DNA of 64,000 bases from a virus (taxonomy: Duplodnaviria > Caudoviricetes): the IMG/VR virus record IMGVR_UViG_3300046318_000318; one strand, written 5' to 3'. Below the pieces are notes generated by a model. It saw nothing but the letters and a program-made list of their open reading frames with translations. It was not told where the DNA came from and did not search any database. Position 1 is the stretch's first letter; the number at the start of each line of letters is the position of its first letter. The translations under genes were made by a program, and so were the position numbers. Shown here one piece after another: positions 4,627 through 16,702 of this stretch.

Positions 4627-5340
4627 TTAAGCTCGAAGTATGCTTTCGATTTTATCCACTTTGGTGGTGGGGGTAACTAAAGCACTCACAACACCATCAG
4701 AGAAATAACTACCAGCTATCTTGTTAACTGTGCTGTTAACAGAATAGAAGATGCTGCTTAAAGGAACAAAGTCTATCTTGCTGTTGACTATGTCAGCATA
4801 GCTTTTAGCCACAGACCGTATGTACTTAGATCTATCATCTTTACTTCTGGTGACCATAGAAGCTATTAATTCAATAACTTCATAGTTACCAGCCACATCA
4901 CTACCAGCATGTGACTTTGCAGTATCGAATAACTTACCTACATCTTCATAACCCATATACCAAGGTATCTTACCTTTGAATATGAACTCATCGAAAATGT
5001 TGTACATCAACAGATCGTCTCTTACCACTTCGGTGTTCTTAATAACCACATCACCAGCTCTGAATTCAAATTGATGATATTCAACCTCATCAATCTCAAC
5101 CACAGAAGTCTTAAATGGATTAATAGACATAACCGCAGTTACGTTGCATAACGTGTATTCACCATTCTCAAAGATCACAGGAAAGCAACCGTAGATTCTG
5201 GTTTCCACGCCTACTTCACCCAGACCTCTTTCAGAGTAACGATAAGGAACTTGTATCTTACAGTTTTCTTTTGTAAGTATCTGTCCCTTACCATTATCTA
5301 CCAGTTTGGCTTTACACGCTGGTGAGCGTGTGTACTTCAT
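4627..5340 (-). CDS. Conserved phiKZ-like protein (gp176 position), probably virion-associated
   Basis: 237-aa ORF, translationally coupled to 5337..6797. Assignment rests on synteny and recall. Confidence 0.6.
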   Translation of the reverse strand: MKYTRSPACKAKLVDNGKGQILTKENCKIQVPYRYSERGLGEVGVETRIYGCFPVIFENGEYTLCNVTAVMSINPFKTSVVEIDEVEYHQFEFRAGDVVIKNTEVVRDDLLMYNIFDEFIFKGKIPWYMGYEDVGKLFDTAKSHAGSDVAGNYEVIELIASMVTRSKDDRSKYIRSVAKSYADIVNSKIDFVPLSSIFYSVNSTVNKIAGSYFSDGVVSALVTPTTKVDKIESILRA

Positions 5341-6797
5341 GATTGAACAGGTGTGATCTGGTCAGCCAGATAGTCAGTGACATAGTTTACAGCAGAAACC
5401 AAAGCTGCTTCTCTTGGATCCAGATTAGGATTCAGTTTAGTAGCTTGTTCAATACCAGACAGAATCTGATAACCTGCTGTAAAATAGAAACGTGCACGAG
5501 CCATCAAATTCAAAGCCAGTTCAGCAACCAGATCCAAATCATGCAGCTTGAGACAGCCGATATATTCAGACGCTACTTTCATAACTGTGTTTGCGTACTG
5601 AGGATCTTTATTGACGTATTCTTTTTCTACATCAGACAAATTACACATATGTGTATTCATCACAGTCAGTAAGAACAATTTGGTGTTATCCAAACGAGCG
5701 TTCTCAGCAGACACAGATGCAAATGAACAATAAGAGTTCCAGCCACGGGTCAGAGCGTCTCGTGAATCCAAAACTGTAGACAAAGATGTAGCTCCGCTGT
5801 TGGTAGCACAAACACCCAACACCATCTCTACAGTACCGCCTTGTTCAAGATAAGCTCTGTAAACAGAACCTTGAACATAGATAGACTTAGTCTTGCTATC
5901 AGACTTCAGAATCAGAGTGTTGTTCTTGATCATGAAGTAAGCGCGTTTGATAAGGCTGTTCAACATAGAACCAGCAAAATCACGCACTTCCAACATGTAA
6001 GACTGATACTCGTTCAAGCTGGTGTTCAAACCTTCAGGTACGTTGCTATGTAGTTTCTGAGCCATAGTGTACAGCACCAGACACATATACAAAGCATCAT
6101 ACAGATTCTGCTGACCCAGAGTAGAGTAACTTACATCTAATCCGCTATTTGGATTCTGTCTGAAGAAAGCATCAAAGACTCTTTTAGCAAAATCATCACC
6201 TATTTCTACAACAGCTTCATTAAGCAGCTTATCGATACGAGCAGAACCCAAAGACAACAAAGAGTTGTGATCAACAACCACATCATCAAAGCTAACATAG
6301 CCCTTAGGGATAATAGAAGCTTTACCTTCGTAGTACTTAAACTGCTCAATGAAACTCTGGTCTTCAAACAAAGCAGGAAGTTCTTTCTGAACGATGTTGA
6401 AAGAACTGGCAGGATCCACTACTTTGTTACGCTGACAATACTCAGCATACTCAGTCATAAATTCCAGAACATGAGGCTTAACCACATTACGAGCTATCGC
6501 TATGTGAGAAGTTACCACACCACTAAGAGTGTCGATGACTTGGCCAATAGCGTTGTCGTGTAAAGATGGGCTCTCAAGAGTTCCTGTTGAAACAGATGCA
6601 AGATCGTCTGCTGTAGTATTGATATACTCAGCAGACATCAAAGTCTCAGGAGATACCAATGCATTCTCTGCATTACAGGAAGACAGATTAACCAACTGAC
6701 CGAGAAGAGAATTGCTATTGGCTACCAGAGCCTTTTTCTGACCTGCGTAGTGAGCACCCAGCTCATACGAAGAAGTCAAAATTATTTTATCTAACAT
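5337..6797 (-). CDS. Conserved phiKZ-like protein (gp177 position)
   Basis: 486-aa ORF lying between the vRNAP beta gene and the protease. Confidence 0.6.
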   Translation of the reverse strand: MLDKIILTSSYELGAHYAGQKKALVANSNSLLGQLVNLSSCNAENALVSPETLMSAEYINTTADDLASVSTGTLESPSLHDNAIGQVIDTLSGVVTSHIAIARNVVKPHVLEFMTEYAEYCQRNKVVDPASSFNIVQKELPALFEDQSFIEQFKYYEGKASIIPKGYVSFDDVVVDHNSLLSLGSARIDKLLNEAVVEIGDDFAKRVFDAFFRQNPNSGLDVSYSTLGQQNLYDALYMCLVLYTMAQKLHSNVPEGLNTSLNEYQSYMLEVRDFAGSMLNSLIKRAYFMIKNNTLILKSDSKTKSIYVQGSVYRAYLEQGGTVEMVLGVCATNSGATSLSTVLDSRDALTRGWNSYCSFASVSAENARLDNTKLFLLTVMNTHMCNLSDVEKEYVNKDPQYANTVMKVASEYIGCLKLHDLDLVAELALNLMARARFYFTAGYQILSGIEQATKLNPNLDPREAALVSAVNYVTDYLADQITPVQS

Positions 6798-7065: not shown

Positions 7066-7272
7066 TTAACCTTTATAGACTTTAACTGCCTTTTCGGCAA
7101 CTTTCTTTAACAACGTGGTGGTGGTACCTATCAGAAATGGAGAATTAACAACACGAGCCATAATGGATCTAAATCCAAAAATAGCATCGACTCTTTCACC
7201 AGATTCTGTATGGACATCATAGTCCATAATTTCACCTATCACACTCTTCATTTGATTAGCGAACACAATTTT
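7066..7272 (-). CDS. rpoB: vRNAP beta-like subunit (gp178-like), exon 3 (68 aa, KIVFANQMK...)
   Basis: Joins exon 2 (...GVGD) to give GD|KIVFANQMK, equivalent to bacterial GDKMAGRHGNK; preceded by the intron terminal G at 7273. Confidence 0.85.
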   Translation of the reverse strand, partial: KIVFANQMKSVIGEIMDYDVHTESGERVDAIFGFRSIMARVVNSPFLIGTTTTLLKKVAEKAVKVYKG

Positions 7273-8890
7273 CGTTATCTTCAGATAAGGGCGTTAGTCC
7301 TATCTCGCACCATAACGCGCAGCTCTAGCTTTCACTAGATGTCGAGACTATATCTTTACCGTACTTTATAAATACGGTATCTTCCGTTTCGAACTCCACT
7401 CGGAGCCCTACAGGTTGGTAAAACCTTAGTCGTTGGCCACACTCCTATACGGAGCTTCGGTGCTGGGTTGTCCATTGTAATATCTCAACACTTTTTAAAA
7501 CCATGACGCTTACCGTTTCCAGTTTCGCTTTGGTAGCTGAGCTTTAGGAGTTTCCCGCAATTAGGAAGAATTCTACGTCGCTATTACTAGCAACTAGGAC
7601 TATCAGTACTCATTTCCTTAAAAGTGAATTCATCATAAGACTTTCCTGTTTTTAATCTATCTGCTAAAGTTCTTTTATCTAAGCCAATGTCAATTGTCAC
7701 TGATCTCTTACTTTTATATACTTTCACATCGCCAGTAGTCAGATTAGTAACTATTACCATTTTTGGTGGAGTGAATCTAGTTTCTCTGAAATTTTCAGGC
7801 CATTTGTCCTTTGACACTTTTCTGAACAAATAACCGCTATGCGATATCACATCAACTGATCGTAGTGCAGACTCTATGCGGTCCTGACTAACACCAGTCA
7901 ATTCTGACAATTCTTTCACCGACTTAGCTTTAACAACTTTTTTGGAATCTAGTTCCAAAGCCTCTAATAGAACTTTATGATGCTTACGAGCGGTTTGGAT
8001 GACAGCCTGGTTATATTGCCAGGTTCTCTTCCCAACGTCTTTTGTAAACATCAGCTCAAAACGATTCAGGAATAAATTTGCAACGATCTCATTACCATGT
8101 TTTCTATAAATGGGTTTAACTGACCGCATACCCAGATATTTGAAAGCTTTTTTAAGTGAATAATGCTCGCTTACACTGTCGGTTTCCCAGTCTTTTACAA
8201 GCACATTGACACTGTCTGTTTTCAAACCTGTAACCATGGCGTGGGTGTTATTTTCTTTTGATGTCACCCATTCTAAATTTTTTAAATCGTCGTTCTGTTT
8301 GTTTCCGTCGATGTGGTTAACAAAGAATTTATTTGCGGGATCGCTGTTTCTTAAAAAGGCTCGCGCAAGAAGAATGTGGACACACACACCTCTCCATCTA
8401 TTTTTATCAGGATCATATATTGATACTTCAGTATAACCATAAGAACTTCTTCGTCGATTCATTCTCTTGTATTTTAAAAGAGAAATTACATCTCCGGCTC
8501 TATTGATTATAAAACCAGGGAAACCTGGAATCAGTACATATCCATCTTTATAACAAATAGGGGTTCGTATTTCCATCAGCCACTGACATCTTAGTTTAAG
8601 CACTTTTGATTTACATTCAGTAAATGTTATCTTTTCCAATTCAGGTAAAGTCAACATAACCTCATAATGAGCCAAAAGACTTAACCAATGTCTGTGATAG
8701 GTTCTGTATACATCACCTATCAAAACACTAATAACATTCTTCTCAACTTTCACAGACGGGGAATTTTCATTTTCCTTGAACCAACATTCGTGATTCTGAT
8801 TAAAAACATATCTTTTATCCACTAATAAAGGTTTTAGCATATATAGATCCTGAGTTATTATTCTCACTCTATATATGGAATACTGCTTTA
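7273..8890 (-). mobile_element. Group I intron (1618 nt) with HNH homing endonuclease, in vRNAP beta at GD|K
   Basis: Minus-strand core elements: P AAUUGCGGGAA (7552-7562), Q CAACCCAGCAC (7460-7470), R CCAACGACUA (7427-7436), S AAGAUAUAGUCU (7345-7356). The 5' exon ends in U, the intron ends in G, IGS is GUC, and P2 has a GUAA tetraloop. Confidence 0.9.
7587..8840 (-). CDS. Intron-encoded HNH homing endonuclease (NUMOD4-like + HNH + repeated C-terminal DNA-binding modules); likely start ATG 8840 (417 aa)
   Basis: VHILLARAF...VNHIDGNKQNDDLKNLEWVTSKENNTHA HNH motif; AGGA RBS before ATG 8840. Confidence 0.88.
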   Translation of the reverse strand: MLKPLLVDKRYVFNQNHECWFKENENSPSVKVEKNVISVLIGDVYRTYHRHWLSLLAHYEVMLTLPELEKITFTECKSKVLKLRCQWLMEIRTPICYKDGYVLIPGFPGFIINRAGDVISLLKYKRMNRRRSSYGYTEVSIYDPDKNRWRGVCVHILLARAFLRNSDPANKFFVNHIDGNKQNDDLKNLEWVTSKENNTHAMVTGLKTDSVNVLVKDWETDSVSEHYSLKKAFKYLGMRSVKPIYRKHGNEIVANLFLNRFELMFTKDVGKRTWQYNQAVIQTARKHHKVLLEALELDSKKVVKAKSVKELSELTGVSQDRIESALRSVDVISHSGYLFRKVSKDKWPENFRETRFTPPKMVIVTNLTTGDVKVYKSKRSVTIDIGLDKRTLADRLKTGKSYDEFTFKEMSTDSPSC

Positions 8891-9799
8891 ATCACCTACG
8901 CCAGATACGGTGTCTATGGTGATGTAGAGTTTGATCTCTGCTTTGTCTAAAGCCAGTCTTGTGCCACCGACTCTATACTCGTCATTGACCTCGCCCGTCA
9001 TGGACCCATTACCTATAGACCTGGAGTTAGCAGAAAAGTTCTTATCGCTCTTATCAGCTAAAGCTCTTAAAGAAGGAGACATGTCTTCTTTAGATCCATG
9101 GTAGTAAACTTCTATTCTATCTAGCACTCCGTCATATTTAGACTTGATAGCCTGTTTAGACAGATCCGCTAAAACAGATAAAGAAGCTTCATCAAACTGA
9201 CCAGTAGAAGTAATCTCATCCTCAAGAACTAGCAGTATGTCATTAGGTTTAATCTCTTTACCGAATTCCACCACGTTGTGGATATTCTGCTTAAAAGAAA
9301 CCATAACAGACTTCATCTTGGTGGTCTTAGCTGTAGTCATACCAGAAACACGTTTAGAAACAGCAGAGCTGTCTTCATGTGTTTGGTTGGTTTCCATCAA
9401 AGCCACTTTGACAGTCATAGAGTTCTTCATCACGACACGCTTAGGATCAAGCATATCTCTTTCAAAGAACCCTGTGTTGTAAGCTATGTTATCACCCTTA
9501 ATGAATTTATCGCCAGGTTTTAACTCAGTTACAACATCGTGAGGATACACACTACCTTCTGCTTTACCATAGATACGCCCTAGTTGAACACCTTTTCTTT
9601 CACCACTTGCGTATTCGATAATTATACCACGATTGTCCACGCTGATAACTTTACCAGCTTCAGTGGCGTTAAATGCAAACAAACCACTTGTCCTGTTAGC
9701 CACTACGTAATCATAACCTGTTCTTACGATAGGTTGGTGGTAATCTCTACAAGCGATGGTATGTGCCTGCTGTATTTGGACAAAGTTGACCCGTTTTCC
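8891..9799 (-). CDS. rpoB: vRNAP beta-like subunit, exon 2 (303 aa, GKRVNF...GVGD)
   Basis: Beta-like motifs PIVRTG, GDNIAYNTGFF and ETNQTHEDSSAVS. The spliced junction SQDD|GKRVNFVQIQQAH corresponds to bacterial HDDANRALMGANMQRQ. Confidence 0.88.
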
Positions 9800-11162
9800 C
9801 TTACTGTCCAATAAAGTCGCTCAGCTTCACAGCTTACCCTCTTTACCCGGTGTGCTCAGACACCCGCCTATATTCTCATACAGGAACAGACTATATCTTC
9901 ACCCTCTGTATACAGTAGGGCGCTCTCCGCTTCGAATACCGCTAGGTATCCTACAGGTTGATAAAACCTTAGTCGTTGAACTTTACACATGGTTGATCAG
10001 AATCAACTTTAGCGTCTTAGCTGCTGATTGTCTCTACCTACTAATTTTCAAACACGTTACGTATGTGTTTTCACACTCCGCTTTGGTTTAGTAGTCTAAC
10101 AAGAGTTTCCAGCAATTCAAAGAGATTCTTTGAAAAGTTTCTTTTCCAAAGGACTTAACTGACTGTAATACACATACTTTCTACCGTCACGGTGAACCTT
10201 TGCTTCTTGGTTTAAACGCCAGTGTAAGGTAGTTATTTTAATACCATTATCGCTAGCGCAACTTGTGACAGACTTATATATTTTTCTTTCGTCTGTCAGA
10301 CAGTTCCAAACAGTTATGACTTTACACCCTGTGAAATTTTCATAACTTTCAATGAAATCTGTGTGTGTTACCCAAGGTATCGAATTATCATTAGGTTTAA
10401 GCTGAATAAAATTATCTATAACCGGCTGATCTTTGTTGTAAAACAACTGAGAAACATAACCTGTGCTTAAGCCTAATTTTGACGATACTTCATTACAACT
10501 ACTGTAGATAGTGATTCTTTCAATAGCTGGATATGTTCTCACCGCAACGCTTTTGTTCCTACCGTAAAGTTTTTTCGCTTCTTCTAAATCTTTTATTTCA
10601 ACCCAAGGTGTTTTATCTTTCTTCAGTTTGAATTGTTGACCAGATGGCGATAATCTTTTACCTAGGTATCTTAATCTGTATAAAACAGTATCCTTACTAA
10701 CACCAAGATGTTTGGAACATTCAATGATGCTAGGGTATTCCGATATCAAACCACTTTTAACATCTCTTACTAAAATAGGTAAACACTTTCTACTTAAGTT
10801 GTTAAGACCTGCGTGTTCAACGTTCTGTTTAGGTGTTACGATTTCAAGATTTTCAAGTGTGTTGTTGTGTTTATTACCGTCCTTATGGTTTACATACAAC
10901 TCACCAAACTTTTCATAATCGCTGCAAATAAAACAAAACGCTATCAGTCTATGCAATCCCCAAGTTAAGGTTACGCCATTATCGGATGTTAATCTAATAT
11001 TGGTGTAACCTGCTGGATTTATAGATCCTTTTAAAAACTTTTCTCTATGAAACGAAAAAACTTTTCCATCTGGCGAGACTCTGTATTTAGAGTAACCTTT
11101 TGGAATCTTAAAATTAGGTGTATTACATTCAGTCATATACAGTTCCTCACTGTATATATTTA
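9800..11162 (-). mobile_element. Group I intron (1363 nt) with HNH homing endonuclease, in vRNAP beta at DD|GKR
   Basis: P AAUUGCUGGAA (10107-10117), Q CAAUCAGCAGC (10020-10030), R GUUCAACGACUA (9970-9981), S AAGAUAUAGUCU (9888-9899); GAU| 5' site and terminal G at 9800. Confidence 0.9.
10117..11136 (-). CDS. Intron-encoded HNH homing endonuclease (339 aa)
   Basis: KYRVSPDGKVFS NUMOD4-like segment; LHRLIAFCF...VNHKDGNKHNNTLENLEIVTPKQNVEHA HNH motif; GAGGA RBS. Confidence 0.9.
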   Translation of the reverse strand: MTECNTPNFKIPKGYSKYRVSPDGKVFSFHREKFLKGSINPAGYTNIRLTSDNGVTLTWGLHRLIAFCFICSDYEKFGELYVNHKDGNKHNNTLENLEIVTPKQNVEHAGLNNLSRKCLPILVRDVKSGLISEYPSIIECSKHLGVSKDTVLYRLRYLGKRLSPSGQQFKLKKDKTPWVEIKDLEEAKKLYGRNKSVAVRTYPAIERITIYSSCNEVSSKLGLSTGYVSQLFYNKDQPVIDNFIQLKPNDNSIPWVTHTDFIESYENFTGCKVITVWNCLTDERKIYKSVTSCASDNGIKITTLHWRLNQEAKVHRDGRKYVYYSQLSPLEKKLFKESL

Positions 11163-14100
11163 ATCATCTTGACTACTACCTGGTGCAAGCATAGTGGCTG
11201 TGCTTACCATAGAAGCAGGTGTTACATTTTTATCAGCTTTGATAATCCCACGCATATCCTTAAAATTTGGATTAGACGAAAGATAGAAGTTGATACCCAC
11301 GTCACCGCTGTCAACAGAAGCTTCAGAGACCACACCTACATCAGACACATGAAAAGCTCTGGTGGCTTTGTTCATGGATTCTTTACCACGACCACCTTCA
11401 CCTACATATGTCACTATCTCAGACTCTTTCATGTTCTGGATAGGGTTGATATCCTCTACTAACTTAATAGCAGGGTCTTTCATAATAGCTGACCATACAG
11501 CAAAAGGAGACATATCTATCTTGGATCTTCCAGAGATATTCTTATTCCTATACTGTCTTATAGCTGTAGATAATTGACTGTAGACTATGCCAGAGATACG
11601 CTCATAACCTCTGATACGCATGTGGTTTAGGTCTTGAGTATCTGGATGGCTGTAATCTACAAGCATCTCAGTAGACTTGACTAACAAACCTTCAAAAGTA
11701 ACAGGCATGTTCATCTGCTCAAGTATGGTTTTAGTAATCCCATCTATAAACAGTTGACGATAGACATCCAGTTCACGTATGTATAGTGAGCTCAGAGATT
11801 TACTTTCAAACAAGTTGAAATAAACATCTTTGTCGTTATACATCTCTACCGGATATTGTTTTAGAGTTTTCTCAAAGTCTAAGAAGCCAGAGAGTATTAA
11901 ACTGGCTGCTTTCTGTTTCCTGCTGAATATGTAAGACACATCAGCAAACTTCAAAGCGTATTCATCTTGCTGAAGATCCTTTTGGAACCTGCCTTCGACG
12001 ACACGATACTTGGCTTTAAGAAGAGTCAGTAGTTTATCTAGCCCAATGTAGTACCCAAGCACTACACCGACAGGTATTGTCTTAGCAAATACTCTAAGCT
12101 CTGTAAAGTCTACAGGTGATTTGGTTTTATCTATCCCTAGCATGGTCTCTATATGACCTATGCTGACATATCCACCTGCTTTATAGATAAAGAATTCTTC
12201 AGTCTCAGCCATCACGATAGGTTCCAGCTTAGCTGTAAACCCACAGACTATACTTCCGTTCTTCTCTATTTTAGCAAAGTCGTCAGAAATAACAGATCGA
12301 TCTCTTTCATCAAAGATGAAAGTATTACCTGCTATCTTAAACGTTTTATAGTTTTGAGACAGAAAGCTATAGAGGTAAGGAGCTTTAAGTAAGTTGTTAT
12401 ACACGTTAGCAGGACCCAGATCTGTAATGACAGGGTTTTCTAACATGCTTAACTTACTGATGTTTCTCAATAACCAATCGTAAGAGCTGTTGGCTTTCTT
12501 ATCAGATACAGCCACAAACGTCTTACCGTAATAGCTGGTTAAAGCTACTGTGATAGGGTCTATTTTGCGGATAGGTGTATCTACACGCTGTTTTCTGTAA
12601 GAGTAAGAAGACCCACCTACCTTCATCACTCCGTCTTCATCCACACACGGTACTCTGAACCGTATCGTAGAAGCCATACCGTCTACAGGTTTAAACTGTA
12701 CTTCATGTACATCGTAGGCACCCATGACACTACTTTCATTTCTGATCTCATAGCTGGTTATAGCTACACCAGCTTTCTGTAAACCAGACACCATCATCAA
12801 CATGTCTTTCTTCATGACTTTGTTGATGTAAGCTTTATCAAAAGACTGTAAAGAAGATTCAGCCATCGTCTTGTCTAACATGTATTCAGACGTGACTATT
12901 TTATTGTCTTCTTCATTTAAAGTGACATCAGCTACTGTAACAGAGTTCAACTCAGAGATTTTCTTCTTGCTACCGTAAGGATCTTCTATGTTGTCAAATT
13001 CTTCAGCCAGCTTAACCATCTTTTTATAATCAGCTGCTGACAACCTACCAGTATCAGCAGCAGCATCTATAGACATTTTAAGACTTTCTTTATAAGTCTT
13101 ATCCCCATAGACTTCAGCTTGTACTTGTTCTTCTGTAAATACTCTCTTGAGTTTGGTTTCGGTAACTGCACCTTCACCATCTACAGATATGCCTTTCTTG
13201 GCTAACTTGTTCTTCTGTACAGTATCAGCTACTTTGACTTCTTCATCCACTTGAGCCAATATAGCGTCAATATCTTTTATATCGTTTAAACCATCGTCTT
13301 CATCCTCAGAAACCTCAGGCTTTTTATCTGTGGTTTCTTTTGCTTTAGACTTGGTAACACCATGCATGAAAGCATCTGATACCTCACCAGGTAGATCTAC
13401 CTCATCATCGAAGTCAACAGACTCTGCATCCTGAACAGGATCTTCCATCAAAGGTTCTTCTTCTGCAATCTCAGAAGAAGTATTCAGCTCCATCAAAAAC
13501 TTCAGAAACAACTTCTGGATGTGGGTATCCTCAAGCTGCATAGTGTCATTAAAGCCTGTTAGGTTGTTATGTCCTTTGATCCAACTAGACATATAACCTA
13601 AGTTAACGATAGAAGCTTTATTGGTTTTGTTAAAGAAAACGATGTTTACTTTAGAAAGCTTGTCCTCAGTGATACCAGACAAAACACTTTGACCTGAGTT
13701 CTCTTTATCCAACCATTTGTAAACCTCAAGAACAAACAGTTTCTCAACTGTATTAAATACAGTCAGTAAACCTGTACTAGGCTTGGCTTTAGAGAACTGT
13801 TCTAAGAAGCTAACTGCAGGTACCTCTTTAGGCACAGACATGAAGATAAAGTGATGCCTTCCAGATATCCCACAATCTTTAGACACGTTTTCAAATAACG
13901 TATTATAAAGATTCTTAAACTTGAAATAAGGCGTTGTAGCCAGATCCATGTATTTATAACTCTCATGCAGATAGTTATAATTTTTCACGATTAAAGTACT
14001 GCTGTCTTTAACAACAGCTGTGGCTTCAGGTCTGTATTGAAACAGTTTGTTTTTCAGATGGAAATCTCTGATAGCCACTTTCAATACAAAAGGTACCTTC

Positions 14101-14333
14101 CTGGCACCACCTTCTGTAAAGTCCGACACAAAGACATAGTCAGTAGCTATCCTGTTTTTAAAACCTTTGAAATAAAGCTTAGAAACATCAAGATCCATAC
14201 CACCATCCATAGTGAGGTGGTGGTAAACAGAATCTCTGGGAAAGCTTATGAAATCCACTATTTTTGGACTGACTAAGTTCTGTATGCGTCTGGTACCTGA
14301 TTCTCTATAGAAGAGATTAAAAAGTTTTTGCAT
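11163..14333 (-). CDS. rpoB: vRNAP beta-like subunit (gp178-like), exon 1 (1057 aa); spliced product 1057+303+68 = 1428 aa
   Basis: RIRGYER, EDINPIQ, VTYVGEGGRGKES...RAFHVSDVGVVSEASVDSGDVG (fork/Rif-region-like) motifs; the ORF ends at the splice site SQDD|UAA. Confidence 0.88.
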
Positions 14334-14338
14334 GTTGT

Positions 14339-14500
14339 TTAACCTGTCATGTTGGCCAGTGTTAACTCAAGAACATCATCTCCAGCACTGAAGTTCATCT
14401 TGTTATTTACACCGACATAGAAATCTCTAGAATTTAATTTGTTTCTGATCTCTAACTTAGACTCTTCAGACAGAACGCAAACTAAAGACATCGTATCACC
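14339..14500 (-). CDS. rpoC: vRNAP beta-prime-like subunit (gp180-like), exon 3 (GDTMS..., 53 aa)
   Basis: Starts GGT GAT ACG ATG directly after the intron terminal G at 14501 and completes ADFD|GDTM. Confidence 0.88.
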   Translation of the reverse strand, partial: GDTMSLVCVLSEESKLEIRNKLNSRDFYVGVNNKMNFSAGDDVLELTLANMTG

Positions 14501-14839
14501 CTTATTGTCCAGTAAAGTCGCTCGGTTATATAAACCTACTCTCTTTACCCGGTGTGCTAAGACACCCGCCTGTACTTTCATACAGGAACAGACCATATCA
14601 CCATCTTCAGCTTTATCTGGTAAGATGCTTCCCACTTCGGATCTGCTAGATCCTACTCCCTTACGGGATGGTCGTTGAACGTTCACCTATACGGTGCTTC
14701 GCTGCTGATAACCCAATCCTAATCTTTTCAAACCGTGGCTTTGGCTTTCGCCTCGCGGTGGTGATTAGGCTCTAAGGGTGTTCCAGCAATTCAAGAAGTT
14801 TTCATTACAGAATTTCTTCTATATGCGACAATGTTACTT
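14501..14839 (-). mobile_element. ORF-less group I intron (339 nt), downstream member of the tandem pair in the beta-prime catalytic motif
   Basis: P 14781-14791, Q 14701-14710, R GUUCAACGACCA (14669-14680), S GAUAUGGUC (14591-14599). P7 is GACCA/UGGUC, a compensatory change from GACUA/UAGUC in the other three introns. P1 is CGAU|AA/UUGUCG; P10 is GUAACAUU/GGUGAUAC (7 of 8 positions pair). Confidence 0.9.
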
Positions 14840-14845
14840 ATCGAA
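14840..14845 (-). CDS. rpoC: 6-nt micro-exon (TTC GAT = Phe-Asp) of the vRNAP beta-prime catalytic ADFDGD motif (exon 2)
   Basis: Flanked by the upstream intron end (...GGACAAUAGG|) and the downstream intron start (|AAGUAACAUUGUCG). It is the exact piece needed to rebuild LGAD-FD-GDTM in frame. Confidence 0.85.
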
Positions 14846-15256
14846 CCTATTGTCCAGTTACAGTCGTTCGGTTTCAAACCTATCATAAAGTAACCCGGTG
14901 TGCTTAGACACCCGCCTTTGGCTTTCCCAAAGGAGCAGACTATATCTTCACCCTCTGTTTATACAGTAGGGTGTTTCCCACTTCGGAGATACTATCTCCT
15001 ACACCTTGCTTAAGGGTTAGTCGTTGAACTTTACGCATGGTTGGCTATAAAGTCAACTTTAGCGTCTTAGCTGCTGATTACCCATTGTTACATTTAATCC
15101 GTTTTCAAACCTTGGCTTTGATTTTCATCTAGCGGTGGTGGATTAACTTTAGGGTGTTCCAGCAATTCAAGAAAAATCTCTTTAAATATTACTATTTAAG
15201 AGGACAATCGGATATAAAATATGAATACTTTTAACTCACTTTTTATATCCTTTTTT
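14846..15256 (-). mobile_element. ORF-less group I intron (411 nt), upstream member of the tandem pair in the beta-prime catalytic motif
   Basis: P 15157-15167, Q 15070-15079, R 15018-15029, S 14937-14948. P2 is UAAAUA-GUAA-UAUUUA; the 5' exon ends GCU GAU and the intron ends in G at 14846. Confidence 0.9.
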
Positions 15257-16702
15257 ATCAGCACCCAATCTCCCAAGCTGCTTCACAGCGGGCGAGAACG
15301 AATTATAAAAACCATTTCCGTGTATGGGAAATTCAGCACAGACAAGTTCTGTAGGTTCCCAGTTATCATCCAGTAAAGTTCTGGTGTCAGCTTCTACTGT
15401 AGACTTCAGGTACACGTAGCTTGGATATATACTACCATACCCAGTGATAGGGTAACGCGTAGCAAAACAAGGTATCTCTTCAGACCCGTGATAAACACTT
15501 AACATGATCAGCTCAGTTAAAGTGATAGGGCTCACTTCTTCTTTGCTGTATCTTTCAGGTAGTTCATCTATGTCTTGTAAGAATCGATATGTGTTGTCCT
15601 TACCTTTAAAGATCAATCCTGCGTAATGACCAGATATCTCTATATAGTCATGTCTTAGGTTCTCTTGTCCGTAAGTAGCAAAGACTTTCTCTAGACCTTC
15701 GTTGGTCATCCACTTATCGTACTCTTTACCATTGATAGGTACAGTTACTTTCTTCAGAGTCTTTTTATCTACCAGTATCATGGGTGTGTTAGGTCCTGTA
15801 AAGACCTTAGACATAAACCCATCTCTTACGTTTCTAATAGAAAGAGGTAGAGTAGCTCTTAGAAACTGATAAAGACCCACCACAGTTTGTTCTGTGGAAA
15901 CAGACTTAGGACCAAAGAGTTGTGTAGACTTACTTACATAAGAGGTAATAACGTTTCTGGTAGAATGAAAAACTTTTCTACCTGCCCACTTACCTAGTAT
16001 GAGTTTAGACTTACCTTCTAACAGATTCTTAATATACTCAAAGATCTCATTACAAGCTATCTGTAGCTGAAACCTCATGTTGTTGAAATACTCAGCATTT
16101 AACTTAGAGTCTACCGTACCTATGACACCAGAAAGAGAAAGTACTCTTCTATAGAGTCCGTTGATCTCATCTTCGCTAGGTTGACTATTCTCATCTAGAG
16201 TATAGTCTCTCATACCAGCTGGCATCACTACAAACTTATCTATCAGAGCTTTACTGATATATTTATTTACCAGCTTAATATTAAACTCTCTCTTAGGAGA
16301 TGGTCTGTCTTCAAACTTGATATCCTTATAATGCTTAACAAAGAAATCAAATCCAGTTTTACCTGTGACAGGATCAGACTTAACAAAGTCTTTAAGTTCT
16401 GTGTCAAAGACAGCGTAAGCTCTAGATGACATGATGTCACCGTAAAGACTCTTAAGATCATAAAGAGCTTTAAAGATGATAGGATGGAAGATCTGGATGT
16501 TTAGATCTATATAAGAGAACATACGGTTTCTCTTCTCTTCCCCCACCATACCGAACGTCTCAGTGCTGAATAAACCATCTGGATGAAAGTTCTTACTGAA
16601 CCCGTCCATGATGTCAAGTACTTTAACAGGTCTTAAACTTCGAATGTCTAGATCTGCTAGGTTAAGCAAATCCAGGTTAAAGGGTAAAGAAGGTGATTGC
16701 AT
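15257..16702 (-). CDS. rpoC: vRNAP beta-prime-like subunit (gp180-like), exon 1 (482 aa); spliced product 482+2+53 = 537 aa
   Basis: FHPDGLFSTETFG, VMPAGMRD, GKWAGRKVFHSTRNVIT and ATRYPITG motifs (beta-prime regions A-D). The ORF runs ...LGAD then KKGYKK* instead of FDGD. Confidence 0.9.

Follow-up and report, generated by a model that had tools for sequence, protein, structure and literature searches.

Two putative homing group I introns, each with its own HNH nuclease gene, in the virion RNA polymerase beta-like gene of an uncultured freshwater jumbo phage

A beta-like RNA polymerase gene in three exons

The sequence under study is a 64,000-nt stretch of DNA from an uncultured freshwater phage (the window). 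The locus at positions 14333-7066, on its minus strand, contains a gene for a beta-like subunit of RNA polymerase (RNAP) that is apparently interrupted by two group I introns. Five consecutive open reading frames (ORFs) are found here, all on the minus strand. ORF 1 (1057 residues, 14333-11160), ORF 3 (307 residues, 9811-8888) and ORF 5 (66 residues, 7266-7066) correspond to the three exons. ORF 2 (339 residues, 11136-10117) and ORF 4 (426 residues, 8867-7587) encode two HNH nucleases, referred to as HNH-1 and HNH-2. For ORF 4, a start at the ATG at 8840 is likelier, giving a protein of 416 residues, and the GTG at 8867 is open as well.

The segments 14333-11163, 9799-8891 and 7272-7066 can be joined in frame to give 4287 nt, equivalent to 1428 codons and a stop. 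ORFs 1, 3 and 5 all match the same protein family, PHROG 3148 (phrog_3148, RNA polymerase beta subunit, 1424 positions), and do so contiguously. Exon 1 (11163-14333, 1057 codons, ending in ...SSQDD) covers positions 4-1050 of the family with an E value of 1e-277, exon 2 (8891-9799, 303 codons, GKRVNF...GVGD) covers positions 1052-1354, and exon 3 (7066-7272, 68 codons and the stop, KIVFANQMKSV...) covers positions 1355-1422. The uninterrupted proteins ORF038 of Ralstonia phage RP31 and gp207 of Escherichia phage Goslar align without gaps through both junctions, SSQDD|GKRVNF and GVGD|KIVFANQ (the bar marking the junction). The second junction can also be read directly from DNA. In L006 and L007, the IMG/VR contigs that are the closest relatives of the window (exon 2 protein 77-79% identical), intron 2 is lacking and exons 2 and 3 are contiguous as GGTGAT|AAACTTGTG..., as in the predicted splice. 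The DNA of these contigs reads GGTGAT|AAACTTGTGTTCGCTAATCAAATGAAGAGTGTG, compared to GGTGAT|AAAATTGTGTTCGCTAATCAAATGAAGAGTGTG for the spliced window. Family contiguity, the gap-free alignments and this intron-less DNA agree exactly with the coordinates of the in-frame, three-exon join to 1428 residues that an earlier note on this DNA had claimed.

A tblastn search with exon 1 matched 311 jumbo-phage records, and the top deposited protein matches are beta subunits of phiKZ-like jumbo phages, with about 30% identity. No match was obtained when the whole locus was compared by megablast with 50,697 phage records, and a close cultured relative was not found in this set. RP31, Goslar and PhiPA3 share the gene order of the locus: a very large gene on the opposite strand, beta', beta, a small ORF and an ORF of about 490 residues. 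The PhiPA3 record ties the homologous exons gp211 and gp209 to phiKZ gp178, the beta subunit of the virion RNAP. By homology and synteny, the gene is assigned to the N-terminal beta-like subunit of a putatively virion-packaged, multisubunit RNAP (vRNAP) of the phiKZ gp178 type, from an uncultured freshwater phiKZ-like jumbo phage. The identity proposed earlier is upheld by the PHROG 3148 match and the synteny with these three phages.

Searches of Pfam with the exons, and of the Protein Data Bank (PDB) by phmmer with exon 1 and exon 2, found nothing. As these single-sequence searches failed, a family profile of the C-terminal 370 residues, from seven family members, was needed for the search of the PDB. 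The profile matches the beta subunit of Thermus RNAP (1iw7_C) with a whole-sequence E value of 1e-10. In this alignment, the phage motif ekDDgkR (DD-G/P-K-R) is located opposite Thermus EHDDANR. The second motif, GvGDKgvfanqmKsV (G-x-GDK-x5-Q-M-K-S-V), is located opposite Thermus QVGDKLANRHGNKGV, in a stretch that is weak alone (i-E 4.4) and colinear with the first. Here the GvGDK...K of the profile pairs with Thermus QVGDKLANRHGNKG, and exon 3 is aligned to the segment ...GDKLANRHGNKGVV...DGTPVDVIL of Thermus beta. The profile therefore places at the junctions both of the bacterial motifs, HDDANR and GDK, that had been assigned to them. The introns would thus be inserted right after the GAU codon of an Asp residue in each of two catalytic-centre motifs, DD|G (bacterial HDD|ANR, site 1) and GD|K (bacterial GD|K, site 2).

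Ribozymes and nucleases of the two introns

Intron 1 (9800-11162, 1363 nt) occupies the DD|G site, with its boundaries taken from the homologue alignment, and intron 2 (7273-8890, 1618 nt) occupies the GD|K site, which is uninterrupted in L006 and L007. The group I model of Rfam (RF00028, gathering score 50, 253 positions) matches both over its full length (model 1-253). The core of intron 1 (P2-P9, with P7.1/P7.2-type inserts) is located at 9867-10177 and scores 85.8 bits, and that of intron 2 is located at 7323-7617 and scores 83.8 bits, both being more than 30 bits above the gathering score. The conserved J3/4-P4 (AAUUGCxGGAAA), P7 (GACUA...UAGUC) and J8/7 elements are present in both cores, together with phage-typical inserts between P7 and P3'.

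The two introns have the same organization at their ends. The upstream exon ends in GAU, the 5' splice site is GAU|UAAA and is directly followed by an in-frame TAA, and the last base of the intron is G. The nuclease ORFs are located between the 5' splice site and the core, and their final codons overlap P2/P3. In each intron, a segment just 5' of P2 can pair with the last bases of the exon and the first 10-20 nt of the intron, with a U.G wobble at the splice site (RNAduplex and inspection). In intron 1, the predicted guide AGUCA (10164-10160) pairs with the exon UGAU|U, and a predicted P1 extension of 8 bp, assigned partly by eye, pairs 10174-10167 with 11160-11153. In intron 2, the predicted guide UAGUCCU (7602-7596) pairs with the exon GG(U)GAU|UA, the U.G being at the splice site, and the predicted P1 extension pairs 7611-7604 with 8885-8878. 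The same guide motif, A(C/U)AGUC(A/C), is found upstream of P2 in the related introns of L006, L007, PhiPA3 and AgentSmith. Because the guide just before P2 pairs with the intron start, the nuclease ORFs are predicted to lie inside the loop closed by a long-range P1. A local P1 beside the 5' splice site was also considered and was rejected; the local hairpins there enclose the ribosome-binding site, and the guide is about 1 kb downstream, before P2.

These hairpins, just inside the 5' splice sites (11134-11158 and 8838-8877), take in either the AUG or the Shine-Dalgarno sequence of the nuclease genes. In intron 1, the hairpin and the predicted P1 extension compete for the same bases, which suggests that translation of the nuclease and splicing may be mutually exclusive.

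A different possibility is that the gene is truly split, its three pieces being translated apart and assembled non-covalently, with the ribozymes as relics. The RNAP subunits of jumbo phages are naturally split into several polypeptides (PMC7598289), and potential starts are present, an in-frame TTG in exon 2, four codons 5' of the junction, and an internal GTG in exon 3. However, the ribozymes are full length, with scores on a par with those of the related phage introns scanned (65-92 bits), the breaks fall inside catalytic loops, and close relatives hold uninterrupted alleles. ORF-less introns at the same sites (see below) also retain the ribozyme. Given complete ribozymes and the persistence of ORF-less introns at the two sites, a split gene is considered highly improbable.

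HNH-1 (10117-11136, 339 residues) contains NUMOD4, HNH_3 and NUMOD1/I-HmuI NUMOD-like domains, and HNH-2 (7587-8840, 416 residues) contains HNH_3 and has an N-terminal extra region of about 95 residues; both were assigned by Pfam and PHROG 59. The two proteins have 24% identity over their shared length. Both ORFs are intact and keep the HNH motif, and the catalytic His residue (H82 of PhiPA3 gp210) is invariant in both in the alignment. Among the 50,697 phage records, the top match of HNH-1 is PhiPA3 gp210 (37.5% identity, 95% coverage, E value 5e-55), followed by nucleases of Serratia, Pectobacterium and Vibrio jumbo phages whose genes come immediately after the exon-1 equivalent.

The best deposited relative of HNH-2 is gp112 of the Bacillus phage AgentSmith (32.5% identity, 85% coverage). 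An exact peptide-word search of IMG/VR for close HNH-2 relatives found none, and about 30 relatives, with identity up to 39%, were obtained from a wider search, of 5.8 billion proteins. The contexts of four of these (L089, L091, L092 and L093; about 39% identity) were fetched, and all four are at GD|K of the same polymerase gene, with a ribozyme after each. A tree of 16 nucleases splits by insertion site with support of 100/100, HNH-1 being in the site-1 clade; the site-2 members were found by their homology to HNH-2, and the independent information is that they all sit at the same site. The low identity and the two site-specific clades are in keeping with the earlier claim of a distinct HNH nuclease in each intron.

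Occupancy and mobility of the two sites

Intron 1 of L007 has a 339-residue nuclease, and its 1363 nt are 97% identical to those of the window. The identity is 96-100% in all 100-nt windows along the intron but one (80% at 10105-10006). In comparison, the identity is 47-81% in most 100-nt windows of the exons and is higher next to the intron, at 80-90% over the 340 nt on its upstream side and 86% over the 100 nt on its downstream side. The nuclease itself has 98.8% protein identity to HNH-1, in a phage of much more diverged exons. The high intron identity against diverged exons, together with the raised identity of the flanks, indicates that intron 1 has probably homed recently, and the flanks have the pattern expected of co-conversion, a signature that was found for intron 1 only. 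In L006, site 1 holds a 577-nt intron whose 5' part is a decayed nuclease gene: the Shine-Dalgarno sequence is lost, the ATG has become ACG, there is a large deletion, and the C-terminal remnant is 57% identical.

The occupancy of site 1 was surveyed in 80 of at least 163 IMG/VR relatives, among loci that encode the exon 2-3 region, a sample biased to uninterrupted exon 2-3. The site is occupied, with a ribozyme abutting exon 2, in 17 of the 80 loci, and the other 63 read straight through DD. A full gp210-like HNH gene is present in seven of the occupied loci and a remnant in one, and nine are ORF-less.

This decay bears on the possibility that one or both of the nuclease genes in the window are inactive and that the introns are fixed, immobile passengers. 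At site 1 the nuclease gene has often decayed: 10 of the 17 occupied loci have no full ORF. On the other hand, both ORFs in the window are intact with the HNH motif, and the near-identity of HNH-1 to the copy in a far more diverged phage points to recent movement. Inactive passengers are considered unlikely.

Introns are present at both sites in at least four other contigs (from three to four distinct phages: L082/L083, L089, L091 and L092). Nuclease genes are found at both sites in L092, as in the window. L089 and L091 have a nuclease at site 2 and ORF-less intron(s) at site 1, and L082 and L083 have ORF-less introns at both. In L093, site 2 alone is occupied.

There are a few further observations on these contigs. 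L082 and L083, from the different metagenomes 3300027724 and 3300005659, have 100% identity across the fetched 9.4 kb, including both ORF-less introns. In L092, the site-1 HNH gene (948-2345, 465 residues) has a very long branch in the nuclease tree, and no ribozyme is detectable with Rfam in the 176 nt before exon 2; this may be a free-standing or degenerate arrangement. L091 has two tandem group I ribozymes (72.5 and 62.1 bits) at 1781-2467, between exons 1 and 2; these may represent twin introns in or close to the DD site. The 216-kb contig is filed under a Rhodoferax metagenome-assembled genome and is apparently a jumbo phage placed in a bacterial bin.

The architecture of the locus could in principle be a chimera of metagenome assembly. 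The source is metagenomic, the ribozyme core is repeated in the community, with depth spikes at 9884-10140, and one contig has aberrant joints in this region. However, the 5' splice site of intron 1 and the two ends of intron 2 are each spanned, without any difference, by contigs of separate runs, and the architecture of intron 1 is found independently in L007. Because three of the four splice sites are bridged in this way, and with the support of L007, assembly error is treated as excluded, its probability being negligible. The contigs of four runs with an intermediate word share were also searched for intron-less alleles, and no intron-skipping joint was found in them. The sole joints in these runs fall within the repeated core and look as if related introns had been cross-assembled.

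The summed contig depth in four freshwater metagenomes shows a 3- to 8-fold spike over the core of intron 1 (9884-10140), and loose ends are numerous at 10016 and 10117. The same communities appear to contain many related introns in other contexts.

Comparison with known systems and the proposed mechanism

The closest experimental precedent is gp210 of PhiPA3, an intron endonuclease in the vRNAP beta gene gp211/gp209, at a site after the conserved DD (Birkholz et al., Science 2024, PMC11620839). The intron of the window is in the same gene and at the same point after two conserved Asp residues (SSQDD| in the window, SMNDD| in PhiPA3). The organization is also the same, with an exon, an HNH ORF and an overlapping ribozyme core (L004: ORF 4992-5984, ribozyme 5941-6229, 67.8 bits). 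The analogy drawn in the earlier note is stronger than that note could know, as the site is identical and gp210 is the best deposited-phage match of HNH-1. There are differences, however. The nuclease is just 37.5% identical and the beta subunit about 30% identical, and the window phage is from fresh water. PhiPA3 gp209 runs through GD|K, and hence there is no site-2 intron in that phage. Moreover, the functional data belong to gp210, whereas the nucleases of the window are known from sequence alone.

For intron 2, the counterpart is in the Bacillus phage vB_BspM_AgentSmith (MW749006). Its gp111 is a beta subunit ending in ...GMGIGD*, followed by the HNH-2 homologue gp112, a ribozyme (81.8 bits) and the exon gp113 (KVVFGNQMK), so that both the GD|K site and the layout match those of intron 2. 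In contrast to the window phage, the host is Gram-positive, the genome is very distant, and site 1 is intron-free. A literature search found no paper on an intron at the GD|K site and none mentioning AgentSmith, which is weak evidence of absence. Intron 1 is therefore of a described kind, while the GD|K site and its nuclease lineage were not found described, yet are plainly present in public sequences.

The annotation of MW749006 (L003, 1-5675) appears wrong at this locus. AGENTSMITH_111, a 'putative HNH endonuclease', corresponds to the RNAP beta subunit up to GD. The intron nuclease gp112 and the last exon gp113 are both called hypothetical, and the intron is unannotated. Mis-annotated polymerase genes in deposited genomes are thereby flagged.

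The nucleases also resemble I-HmuI and I-BasI, from the DNA polymerase introns of SPO1, SP82 and Bastille, which have HNH_3 and NUMOD-type modules and are encoded by phage group I introns that interrupt conserved motifs of essential genes; HNH-1 is matched by the Pfam I-HmuI NUMOD-like domain. However, the target gene is another one. The ORFs in the window are 5' of the ribozyme core, and nicking by their products is presumed by homology. Multiply interrupted phage genes are known from Twort, with three introns in one gene, and from the td, nrdB and nrdD introns of T4. In comparison, the window has four introns packed in two adjacent genes for vRNAP catalytic subunits, each after the Asp GAU codon of an active-site motif.

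Based on these comparisons, it is very probable that the vRNAP beta gene has been invaded by two group I introns that self-splice and home, and that each of them encodes a site-specific HNH nickase of its own. Each would have the layout of an in-frame TAA, a hairpin over the ribosome-binding site, an I-HmuI-like HNH gene in the loop of the long-range P1, and the ribozyme core. The pre-mRNA would self-splice to produce the 1428-residue protein. In a co-infecting relative, each nuclease would, like gp210, nick the allele that lacks an intron at the nuclease's own site, and repair off the intron-carrying genome would copy the intron and some of the flanking exon. Natural intron-less targets for site 2 are present in L006 and L007.

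Several points weigh against this explanation. Splicing has been read from the DNA letters alone, and none of the 24 runs that contain the sequence is listed as RNA. The exon side of P1 is short (3-5 bp) and is a prediction only. Nuclease activity and target specificity are extrapolated from relatives that are 24-38% identical. The site-2 clade is partly built in, as its members were chosen by homology to HNH-2. Finally, there is no close relative with intron 2, and its recent mobility is judged from presence and absence and from distant homologues at the same site.

By analogy with PhiPA3 and phiKZ, homing may plausibly harm intron-less competitors as a side effect. The introns could also splice and home without any competitive benefit from the nucleases, either as purely selfish elements or because the proteins are kept from competitor DNA, for example by exclusion from the phage nucleus. 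The polymorphism, the co-conversion tracts, the decayed nuclease genes and the ORF-less introns are the ordinary signatures of homing. In addition, the phiKZ nucleus naturally keeps gp210 out, and the strong effect of this nuclease needed artificial import (PMC11620839). Against this, a relative fitness advantage in competition was reported for PhiPA3 (PMC11620839), and HNH-1 is of the same lineage and at the same site. The chances that the nucleases bring no such benefit are judged to be about even. Because the strong published effect needed artificial nuclear import, the nucleases of the window may or may not reach a competitor genome. The data show mobility rather than benefit, and the idea that the nucleases are competition weapons, raised as a possibility in the earlier note, is neither supported nor contradicted by them.

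It has been considered that the GD|K intron and the HNH-2 lineage might be a second interference locus. Two nickases of unrelated specificity would then be aimed at two catalytic motifs in the vRNAP gene of intron-less relatives (e.g. of the L006/L007 type), and double occupancy would reflect selection rather than chance accumulation. This is a tentative proposal and is considered doubtful. If it were true, a competitor could escape only by changing two constrained codons of the active site simultaneously.

The homing introns proposed here place PhiPA3 gp210, the sole intron endonuclease studied experimentally in virus-virus competition, in a widespread family. About a fifth of the 80 metagenomic relatives have an intron at the DD site, in every stage from an intact nuclease to an ORF-less intron, and a natural, apparently recent transfer between diverged phages is seen at intron 1. 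The GDK motif of the same gene would be the target of a second site-specific lineage of nucleases, one that extends from freshwater phages to a Bacillus phage. The two nuclease/target pairs and the natural intron-less alleles provide material for testing the generality of intron-mediated interference.

The relationships among the ribozymes themselves are less regular. In an identity matrix, the core of intron 2 is nearest to the PhiPA3 site-1 core (62%) and the other three introns of the window are 64-68% identical to each other, in alignments that are too loose to build on. When the window (7273-7617) is compared with L004 (5941-6276) and L003 (5070-5460), the cores and the nuclease/site pairs look reshuffled. 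The 3' end of intron 2 resembles that of the PhiPA3 site-1 intron (CTATCTGAAGAT...), and the end of the AgentSmith site-2 intron resembles that of intron 1 (CTGGACA.TAAAG).

The remaining two introns are in the beta' gene upstream (14339-16702, minus strand), where the metal-binding motif is split as GAD|FD|GD by two ORF-less group I introns. The micro-exon between them is 6 nt (TTCGAT, 14845-14840). Apart from the two introns of the beta gene, an RF00028 scan of the 64-kb window found only these twins, at 14916-15234 and 14569-14849. The four putative group I ribozymes are thus within about 8 kb, in agreement with the four splicing events in about 9 kb, twin introns included, that had been claimed. 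All four introns come right after an Asp GAU codon, and L006 and L007 share the twin introns of beta'.

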